Source: Escherichia coli (GTDB taxonomy: Bacteria; Pseudomonadota; Gammaproteobacteria; Enterobacterales; Enterobacteriaceae). From it: 64,000 nt of DNA. Location: the NCBI RefSeq assembly GCF_048403405.1, contig NZ_CP183129.1. One strand, 5' to 3'. Made by a program: the position numbers and the translations under genes. This document shows, piece by piece, positions 39,411 through 42,202 of the stretch; within the stretch, counting starts at the first letter, position 1, and every line of letters begins with the position of its first letter. The notes below the pieces were generated by a model, which was given only the letters and a program-made list of their open reading frames with translations, was not told where the DNA came from and searched no databases.

Positions 39411-40568
39411 TTATTGTCCTGCGAGTTGCTGAAGGGCTGTGATGACGCGGTCGGCATCGGCGGTAGTCATATCCGGAAACAGCGGCAACGAACAGATGCG
39501 TTCGCTATTCCATTCGGTATTCGGTAACGACAGCGTGGGAAAACGCTCGCGATAATATTTTTGTGTGTGAGCGGCGCGGAAATGTAACCCGGTACCAATA
39601 CCTCTTTCTTTTAACGCTTCCATCAACGCATCGCGACTGATACCACAACGTTGTTCATCGACACGAATAATAAACAGATGCCAGGCGTGAACGTGCGGCC
39701 AGGCGGGAAGGCTTAATGGCTGAAAGGGGAGAGCTGCCAGTGCTTGCTGATATTGCTGGGCAATTTCGCGCCGACGGGTGTTGAGGTGCTCTAATTTTGC
39801 TAACTGTGTCAGGGCAATCGCGGCGTTAATATCGGTCAGATTGTACTTATAGCCCGGTGTTAAGACTTCAGCTTGCGGTGCACGGCCCCAGGTTTGTCTG
39901 TCATAGGCATCGACACCCAGACCGTGAAATTTCAGCATCCGTAGCTGGCGGGCAAGGTTTTCATTATCTGTAACAATCAGGCCACCTTCCGCACAGGTAA
40001 TATTTTTGATGGCGTGAAACGAAAAAATAGCGGTACCTTTTGTGCCAATATGTCGCCCTTTGTAATACGTACCGACGGCATGGGCAGCATCTTCGATAAC
40101 TGCGATGCCGTAACGTTCGCCAATGGCGCGAATGGCGTCAATATCTGCTGGCGCACCGGCATAATGCACCGGAATGATGGCTTTAGTGCGTGGCGTAATG
40201 GCTGACTCGATCGCTTCAGGCGTGACCATCAGCGTATCGTGGTCGACATCCACCATTACCGGCGTTGCACCCAACAAGGAAATCATATTGAGGGTTGAAA
40301 CCCAGGTCAGGGAAGGCGTAATCACTTCATCGCCCTTGCCAATTTCCAACGCCATTAGCGTGATATGCATTCCGGCGGTGGCTGAACTGACCGCGATGGC
40401 ATGCTGATTTCCCGTCAACTGGCAAAAGGCTTGTTCAAGCGCCTGATTCTTCGGACCGGTTGTGATCCAACCGGATTCGAGAACCTCTTTAACTGCAGCG
40501 AGTTCCTCCACGCCCATTGCTGGTCGCGAAAAAGGCAAAAATTCTGACATTGCTTTTCCTTCCGCCAT
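39411..40568 (-). CDS. arnB: UDP-4-amino-4-deoxy-L-arabinose aminotransferase ArnB (PLP-dependent)
   Basis: 385 aa from [10 protein letters not shown] (alternative in-frame starts at 40583 GTG and 40550 ATG); first gene of arnBCADTEF. Confidence 0.94.
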
Positions 40569-40648
40569 TGAATACCTGTCCACTTATATTTGCTATAAAG
40601 AGTGTTGTGTATATTTTGCCATTTGGAGCAAAATTTTAAGGATAGAAT

Positions 40649-40665
40649 ATTAACTTAACCTTAAG
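40649..40665 (-). promoter_or_regulatory. Putative PmrA (BasR) box upstream of arnB
   Basis: Minus-strand sequence CTTAAG-GTTAA-GTTAAT is a hexamer-N5-hexamer direct repeat resembling the PmrA consensus (YTTAAK-N5-YTTAAK), about 80 bp upstream of the arnB ATG. Confidence 0.4.
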
Positions 40666-40857
40666 AAACTAATATTAGACGTAAATATTGAAATTTTTAT
40701 ATTTTTTCTTATTTAGGCTTTGCATTTGGCAAAATTTTGAGGCATTTTGCCGGCATCGCAGGATTTTTAATATTACACCAACTGCTAATTATCGCCAGAA
40801 ATGTCGCTCAATTTCACGGTAATTGTCTGGTTGCGCTTGTCTATAGGTGGAGTTTAC

Positions 40858-41460
40858 GTGTTAGCTTTTTGCCGCTCTTCGTTGAAGTCAAAAAAATATT
40901 TCATCATTTTACTGGCGCTCGCTGCAATTGCCGGACTGGGTACTCATGCCGCCTGGAGTAGCAATGGTTTGCCACGTATCGACAATAAAACGCTGGCCAG
41001 ACTGGCACAGCAGCATCCGGTTGTCGTTTTGTTTCGCCATGCTGAACGTTGCGATCGTTCAACCAATCAATGCTTGTCAGATAAAACAGGTATTACGGTC
41101 AAAGGTACCCAGGATGCCCGTGAACTGGGCAACGCTTTTAGTGCTGATATCCCTGATTTCGATCTTTATTCCAGTAATACCGTCCGGACCATTCAGTCGG
41201 CGACCTGGTTTTCATCGGGTAAAAAGCTGACGGTAGATAAACGACTTCTTCAGTGCGGTAATGAGATTTATAGTGCAATTAAGGACTTACAAAGCAAAGC
41301 GCCTGATAAAAATATCGTTATTTTCACCCATAATCATTGCCTGACATATATTGCTAAAGATAAGCGTGATGCGACATTTAAACCTGATTATCTGGATGGT
41401 TTAGTCATGCATGTGGAAAAAGGCAAAGTTTATCTGGATGGGGAATTCGTTAACCACTAA
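40858..41460 (+). CDS. ais: LPS core heptose(II)-phosphate phosphatase Ais (histidine-phosphatase fold)
   Basis: 200 aa from GTG start ([23 protein letters not shown] signal peptide, RHAER motif); the track ORF is a 19-codon upstream extension. Confidence 0.85.
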
Positions 41461-41924: not shown

Positions 41925-42202
41925 AGGGGTATTCCTTATAAATTAAAAGAAACCATGAGAATACGGTAACTCAGAAATATGTGAAAGTGACAGTAATCTC
42001 TTTTGCGATGATAACTGCACTTATTATTATTTTTGTGTGTATCGATAAAGTGTGTTTATTTTTTCGGCGTTTAATTATTTAAGAAGTATTTAGTTACAAT
42101 AAGTGACTAGATCCCTTTTTTCGCTCATTGAATCCTCTGTGCCAGGCAGTACAATCCCGCAGCTTTGGGAATTTTGATTTATTGCTTGTGGGAGAGGGAA
42201 AA

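Follow-up and report, generated by a model that had tools for sequence, protein, structure and literature searches.

One PmrA (BasR) box in the spacer between the divergent arnB and ais genes of Escherichia coli

Introduction

By adding aminoarabinose to lipid A, the arn operon provides a main chromosomal route to polymyxin and colistin resistance. In Escherichia coli it is transcribed away from ais (pmrG), which is itself treated as PmrA-activated (PMC3140997). The spacer between arnB and ais raises the question of whether each gene has a PmrA (BasR) site of its own, or whether a single site could potentially serve both. An earlier note on this DNA, made from the sequence alone, had proposed one PmrA-like repeat on the arnB side. 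Here we place both promoters relative to that repeat with the help of published transcription starts, follow the arrangement through related genomes, and weigh the ways in which ais might respond to PmrA.

Sequences and mapped transcription starts

The window is the whole stretch of DNA analysed, 64,000 nucleotides of contig NZ_CP183129.1 of an E. coli genome, and all positions refer to it unless MG1655 is named. The comparison of arnB promoters covered 80 ArnB loci of the Enterobacterales, including Escherichia, Salmonella, Citrobacter, Klebsiella, Enterobacter, Kluyvera, Kosakonia, Erwinia, Pantoea, Dickeya and others. Transcription starts came from a 2026 re-analysis of MG1655 Cappable-seq data, in which an arnB start is given at 2365854 (+) under antibiotic treatment (PMC12987492 Table 1). 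The same antibiotic-treated set lists primary starts for ais at 2365723 (-) and for ugd at 2099734 (-) (PMC12987492). The genome version is unstated in PMC12987492; its coordinates fit the gene positions of NC_000913.3, and the starts were moved to the window through a gap-free alignment of K-12 and window sequence. No start at these coordinates appeared in the text-form supplementary data of other studies (2016 Cappable-seq, Kim 2012, SMRT-Cappable-seq, Conway 2014).

The arnB-ais locus

Positions 40300–41100 match 5418 of 5426 complete E. coli genomes at an identity of at least 95%, with arnB and ais as the annotation, and the neighbouring gene order is menE-pmrD-(arnFETDACB, minus strand)-ais-nudI-yfaZ. 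The divergent layout described in the earlier note, with arnB on the minus strand and ais on the plus strand around an AT-rich spacer of 289 bp (40569–40857), is borne out by the annotation and by a GC count (32% in the spacer, 52% in the window). The spacer equals MG1655 2365621–2365909 in length and differs from it at five positions with no indel; a sixth difference lies outside the spacer, on the ais side, at the edge of the aligned stretch. In E. coli K-12, this spacer is one of 78 "promoter islands", which are bound by H-NS (ChIP-chip) and occur with presumed-foreign genes (PMC3661553). An Rfam scan of 40450–40950 gave no match.

Both flanking genes are readily identified. ArnB scores 740 bits against the NCBIfam equivalog NF008658 (cut-off 631), with the alignment beginning at residue 7. 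The start codon of arnB is ambiguous: the K-12 RefSeq protein has 385 aa (ATG 40568), and PGAP annotations of other strains give 379 aa (ATG 40550, MSEF...). The NCBIfam profile and the majority of the distant ArnB matches start close to residue 7 (residues 3–7, depending on the genus), and a GAAGGA resembling a ribosome-binding site lies 6 nt ahead of the second ATG. With the latter start, the spacer would measure 307 bp and not 289 bp. Ais matches NCBIfam NF011945 over its full length (390.7 bits, cut-off 142; residues 1–200 on profile positions 1–201). The GTG start that had been read for ais finds support in this match, in the RefSeq annotation and in the GTG present at the called start of 14 of the 18 orthologues examined. 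The features of the locus are collected in Table 1.

Table 1. Features of the arnB-ais spacer and its flanking genes, in window coordinates
Feature	Position	Strand	Details
arnB CDS	39411..40568	minus	ATG 40568, 385 aa; ORF list and RefSeq annotations
arnB 5' leader	40569..40624	minus	56 nt to ATG 40568, 74 nt to ATG 40550
arnB transcription start (A after CC)	40624	minus	Converted from published MG1655 2365854(+)
arnB -10 hexamer TAAAAT	40633..40638	minus	-14..-9; 8-nt discriminator
PmrA/BasR box CTTAAG-GTTAA-GTTAAT	40649..40665	minus	Based on sequence, conservation and motif literature
Box half-site 1	40665..40660	minus	
Box half-site 2	40654..40649	minus	
A/T-rich stretch, box to ais -35	40666..40719		Length conserved, sequence not
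ais -35 TTGCAT	40720..40725	plus	-35..-30; 17 bp upstream of the -10; TTGC conserved in orthologues
ais -10 region GGCATTTT	40741..40748	plus	CATTTT 40743-40748 at -12..-7; G at -14
ais transcription start (A)	40755	plus	Converted from published MG1655 2365723(-)
ais 5' leader	40755..40857	plus	103 nt; Shine-Dalgarno-like AGGTGGAG at 40846-40853
ais (pmrG) CDS	40858..41460	plus	GTG start, 200 aa; NCBIfam NF011945

The PmrA box and its match to the consensus

The hexamer-N5-hexamer repeat that the earlier note had singled out is correct in letters and coordinates when the minus strand is read from 40665 to 40649. It agrees with the consensus YTTAAK-N5-YTTAAK at 11 of 12 positions and fits exactly CTTAAG-N5-NTTAAT, the form quoted for verified Salmonella boxes (PMC3973317). 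The first hexamer, CTTAAG, is its own reverse complement, and the second is ATTAAT, likewise palindromic, in several relatives, so that in these the box scores 11/12 in both directions.

A match to the degenerate consensus is by itself weak evidence. Sites with at most one mismatch to YTTAAK-N5-YTTAAK number four in the window where 2.8 are expected, and 17% of dinucleotide shuffles of the spacer contain a match of at least 11/12. The stricter forms CTTAAG-N5-NTTAAT and TTAAnnTT-N3-TTAAnnTT arise in only 6 and 17 of 5000 spacer shuffles, respectively; they weigh less because they were picked once the site was known. The evidence that decides is the comparison between genomes, the position of the box and the mapped starts. 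The shuffles and the window count are what could be said for a chance match in AT-rich DNA, and that reading is refuted, with virtually no probability left to it, by the retention of sequence, orientation and 10-nt distance in about 80 genomes, by the position of the mapped arnB start and by the published literature.

Elsewhere in the window, a further 11/12 match to the PmrA consensus lies upstream of yfaZ: TTTAAG-AAGTA-TTTAGT at 42078–42094 on the plus strand, which directly abuts a TACAAT. It is probably a chance match, because it does not have the geometry of a box followed by a -10 hexamer at +10.

PhoP, which controls pbgP directly in Klebsiella and Yersinia, was considered as well. A scan of both strands of the spacer with (T/G)GTTTA-N5-(T/G)GTTTA revealed no PhoP box, the best match being 9/12 at 40840–40856, over the ais ribosome-binding site. 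No PhoP box has been reported at this promoter in E. coli or Salmonella (PMC2565834).

The arnB promoter

Counted from the mapped arnB start, the box occupies -41 to -25, so that transcription begins 25 nt beyond it, within the range of 40624–40626 predicted from the sequence before the start data were found. A start upstream of the box had been named as the finding that would overturn the reading, and the comparison with mapped starts places it on the opposite side. No -35 element accompanies the -10 hexamer: AGGTTA stands in its place and matches TTGACA at 2 of 6 positions. Such a layout is expected where a promoter depends on an activator bound over the -35. The published starts come from antibiotic-treated wild-type cells, and the dependence of the arnB and ais starts on PmrA is therefore inferred.

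A simple sigma-70 promoter scan missed both experimentally supported promoters, and the promoter that it proposed, TAGACG-16-TATATT, is unsupported by the mapped starts. A possible second promoter in the arnB direction, at CCTCAAAAT, was rejected, as it has neither a -35 nor a box and is not of the form TAnnnT in E. coli. A third half-site following the box was likewise rejected, being restricted to Escherichia and Citrobacter. The 14-nt direct repeat GCAAAATTTTAAGG / GCAAAATTTTGAGG (40628–40641 and 40729–40742, 101 bp apart) occurs in Escherichia only; one copy lies, on the opposite strand, over the -10 and discriminator of arnB, and the second over the spacer between the ais -35 and -10. This repeat is probably a low-complexity coincidence.

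Conservation of the box and -10 hexamer

Nearly all of the 80 ArnB loci carry a PmrA-type direct repeat upstream of arnB and on the arnB strand, and 78 of them show a box, exactly 10 nt, and then TAnnnT. In one of the two failing loci, the sequence upstream is only 69 nt long. The background frequency of TAnnnT in these regions is 0.029 per position; after candidate boxes it is found 79 times at +10 and at most three times at any other offset. In an alignment of six species that share the ais-arnB arrangement (from Escherichia, Salmonella and Citrobacter), the columns of the box are invariant, as are the first T, the A and the last T of the -10 hexamer, and the flanks drift. A box followed after 10 nt by TAnnnT provides a simple, strongly conserved rule for recognising PmrA-dependent promoters. 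Together with the mapped start and with the marking of the PmrA consensus in a published arn promoter (PMC10729948), the conservation in 78 of 80 loci supports the assignment of this repeat to PmrA/BasR at arnB.

Several loci depart from the common architecture. In Citrobacter amalonaticus S646 (L008), the distance from the box and -10 to the conserved arnB codon is 327 nt, compared with 115–125 nt elsewhere, which gives the arnB leader about 200 extra bases. Phytobacter ursingii (L018) has two tandem boxes 32 bp apart. Four Buttiauxella loci (L055, L063, L064 and L067) carry an extra, perfect CTTAAT-TTAAC-CTTAAT 50–230 bp upstream of the box proximal to arnB. This extra box has no -10 at +10 in three of the four; in L067, it is the upstream box that has TAAATT at +10, and the proximal box is without a -10.

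Activation of arnB by PmrA

Taken together, the box at 40649–40665 is very probably the PmrA (BasR) operator of the arnBCADTEF promoter and would also serve ais, the latter part being the more conditional. By what is established for the family, a phosphorylated PmrA dimer would bind the two hexamers head to tail, over the would-be -35. It would then recruit sigma-70 RNA polymerase to the -10 hexamer TAAAAT, 10 bp downstream of the box, and transcription would start at 40624. For arnB, this biology is already known and was correctly read in the earlier note, and nothing new is added here. In MG1655, induction of a P_arnB-gfp reporter at pH 5.8 requires pmrA (bioRxiv 10.1101/2020.05.05.080051), and a 2023 study of enteropathogenic E. 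coli (EPEC) marked the PmrA consensus, "with a slight modification", in the arn promoter (PMC10729948).

The same EPEC study proposes a different model, in which PmrA represses the arnB promoter by occluding RNA polymerase and the paralogue QseB activates it. In an EMSA made with QseB and not with PmrA, the phosphorylated protein shifted a 60-bp oligonucleotide, and arnB and eptA were up in a pmrA qseC double mutant (PMC10729948). The oligonucleotide is the reverse complement of 40626–40685 and thus includes the PmrA box, to which a close paralogue might bind as well. Judged by the QseB consensus that the study quotes, the spacer has its best match (11/12, at 40780–40795 on the minus strand) inside the ais leader and outside the oligonucleotide, so that the shift may reflect binding to the PmrA box. 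The pmrA requirement of the reporter speaks against QseB as the activator, and a box with a -10 hexamer at +10 in place of a -35, at ugd as well as at 78 of 80 arnB loci, is the layout of an activator-dependent promoter. We regard the EPEC model as very unlikely to hold for this promoter.

Comparison with known systems

The closest known system is the orthologous pbgP (pmrH/arnB)-pmrG (ais) pair of Salmonella enterica, which has the same gene arrangement. Its box, CTTAAT-GTTAA-TTTAAT, is followed after 10 nt by TAGGGT and lies 115 nt before the conserved MSxF codon, as in the window, and GGCATTTT is present on the pmrG side as it is in E. coli. The two differ in that the Salmonella box matches the consensus at 12/12 and the E. 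coli box at 11/12, and in that the distance from the box to the pmrG/ais -10 is 65 bp in Salmonella and 75 bp in E. coli.

In Klebsiella pneumoniae, box1 of pbgP (CTTAAT-ATTAT-CCTAAG) has been footprinted and its structure solved with PmrA; it binds a head-to-tail PmrA dimer, and docking of sigma-70 region 4 has been modelled on PhoB (PMC2565834, PMC3973317, PMC4660055). Its promoter resembles that of E. coli in the hexamer-N5-hexamer, the 10 nt to TAnnnT (L042) and the operon downstream. Unlike E. coli, in which there is no PhoP box, Klebsiella carries one together with a second start that depends on PhoP (PMC2565834), and it has no ais upstream.

The PmrA/BasR-dependent ugd promoter of K-12 provides an independent control, with the layout CTTAAT-ATTAA-CTTAAT, 10 nt, TATTCT and a Cappable-seq start detected under the same conditions as that of arnB (PMC12987492). 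Its box is a perfect consensus, its start lies 7 nt from TATTCT, with a discriminator of 6 nt compared with 8 nt at arnB, and, unlike arnB, it does not belong to a divergent pair. The pho-box promoters, at which PhoB (like PmrA, of the OmpR/PhoB family) sits over the -35 region and contacts sigma-70 region 4, are also alike, in that a head-to-tail dimer binds direct repeats with an 11-bp period that replace the -35; the half-site sequence differs from that of PmrA, and the contact between PmrA and sigma region 4 is a modelled one.

The ais promoter and a probable shared box

On the ais side, a core promoter was marked from conservation before the start data were found, and the mapped start agrees with it: the -10 ends 7 nt before 40755. 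The 8-mer GGCATTTT is invariant in the six-species alignment and present in 17 of 18 ais loci. TTGCAT-17-CATTTT, together with the start, conforms to the layout of a sigma-70 promoter, the sigma factor itself being predicted. The discriminator, GCCGGC, is GC-rich, and the leader measures 58–107 nt among orthologues. A sigma-54 reading of TGGCA...GC was rejected on account of its wrong spacing.

We detected no PmrA site for ais alone in the spacer. The earlier note had seen no equally good box on this side, and a scan of both strands with the PmrA consensus agrees, the next best match being 9/12. The only second site of at least 10/12 in the spacer is the arnB box itself read on the other strand (ATTAAC-TTAAC-CTTAAG), and no box stands in the +10 geometry before the ais CATTTT. 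Since there is no other PmrA site in the spacer, ais probably depends on the arnB box. The regular distance between box and ais, and the retention of the box in genomes without flanking arn genes, both described below, suggest one shared, bidirectional operator for the two genes. A promoter read from the box in reverse orientation was considered for ais and rejected, as TAGACG stands at +10 and none of the Escherichia or Salmonella sequences has a TAnnnT there.

The box lies at -106 to -90 of the ais start; with its centre at -98 (E. coli) or -88 (other taxa), it is remote from the positions at which activators usually work. Its spacing to GGCATTTT is nevertheless regular: among 18 taxa, which are related to one another, it is 75 bp in six and 65 bp in ten, with exceptions of 67 and 62 bp. 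The 10-bp step between the two classes could result from slippage of phased A-tracts and not from selection for helical phase. Within the stretch between the box and the ais -35, a run of T at 40702–40705 (-53 to -50 of ais) is invariant.

Alternatively, ais might have a separate PmrA site near its core promoter and the arnB box might play no part. One candidate is TTTGAG, just upstream of the -10; at the same place, -19 to -9 of the ais start, E. albertii, E. whittamii and Salmonella have TTTAAG-GCATT, and TTTAAG fits the PmrA half-site consensus. As a PmrA site, this TTTAAG half-site at the ais -10 was rejected because it is not conserved: the element varies (TTTGAG, TTTTCAG, TTTTAGG, TTTTTGG). 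Moreover, a partner hexamer 11 bp away never fits the consensus, the element sits inside the spacer between the ais -35 and -10, which is not an activating position, and the best other match in the spacer reaches only 9/12. The distance between box and ais is also fixed even where the flanking arn genes are lacking, as described below. A separate ais site therefore appears unlikely, and the shared box remains our preferred reading.

Genomes without arn genes beside ais

In five genomes (L084, L086, L088, L089 and L093), namely those of Intestinirhabdus alba, Citrobacter rodentium and three relatives, ais follows straight after pmrD or menE with no arn gene between. In C. tructae (L085), an ArnT-like gene takes the place of arnB beside ais. 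All six keep a box pointing away from ais with a TAnnnT exactly 10 nt beyond, and the distance from the box to the ais -10 is 65 bp, or 62 bp in C. tructae. Beyond the orphan TAnnnT, the DNA of L084, L086, L088 and L089 is about 50% identical, which is near random, and Ais is 70–74% identical among L086, L088 and L089. These values imply that the loss of the arn genes was not recent and affected at least two lineages. From the retention of box and spacing we conclude that the box is as much a part of ais as of arnB. The orphan promoter is without an obvious product, as the DNA downstream of it is not conserved in the four genomes compared. The arnB-type -10 beside ais could possibly have been kept for promoter coupling, in view of the GC-rich ais discriminator, for a role of the orphan transcript or for displacement of H-NS.

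Insertions were also seen at the box. In E. coli 266917_2 (L091), an IS1 lies right after the last base of the box (40665) and is accompanied by a 9-bp target duplication, AACCTTAAG; apart from this, the 801 bases compared (40300–41100) match the window at 100%. As a result, arnB keeps the whole box, and on the ais side just the CTTAAG half-site is left, with ais itself shifted 768 bp away from the box. Strain EC5931 shows a break at the same position, and an interruption at 40665 is found in only a handful of 5414 matching genomes.

How ais might respond to PmrA

As a tentative explanation, held with considerable doubt, ais could be without an activating PmrA site of its own, its weak core promoter being physically coupled, across 65 or 75 bp, to the divergent, PmrA-dependent promoter of the arnB type. 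RNA polymerases bound back to back, upstream DNA common to both promoters or local negative supercoiling could provide the coupling. A divergent promoter that works as a regulatory device would explain why a box, 10 nt and TAnnnT persist as an orphan beside an arn-less ais. Divergent promoters can be coupled by local supercoiling, as at ilvY-ilvC, where activity at one promoter affects the other. Coupling of this kind would explain why the arnB-type promoter stays with ais, and the comparison, offered as a lead only, concerns arnB and ais starts that are 121–131 bp apart.

Counter-silencing is a rather unlikely alternative, in which PmrA and RNA polymerase at arnB would displace H-NS and affect ais indirectly, with no need for contact or phase. 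The low GC content of the spacer (32%) and its place among the H-NS-bound promoter islands (PMC3661553) are consistent with this. It does not predict, however, a length fixed at 65 or 75 bp amid sequence drift, and in some relatives, such as Intestinirhabdus alba, the segment is much less AT-rich and the spacing is kept.

Conclusion

This analysis places both divergent promoters precisely on the window and anchors them to transcription starts from the literature. It also adds the observation that the box and an arnB-type -10 stay with ais at a fixed distance even in genomes without flanking arn genes. The part of this locus that calls for an explanation is the retained orphan promoter, perhaps the only one worth an experiment. 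If the coupling of the two promoters is true, ais would provide a modest, testable example of a promoter that is retained for its regulatory effect and not for its transcript.
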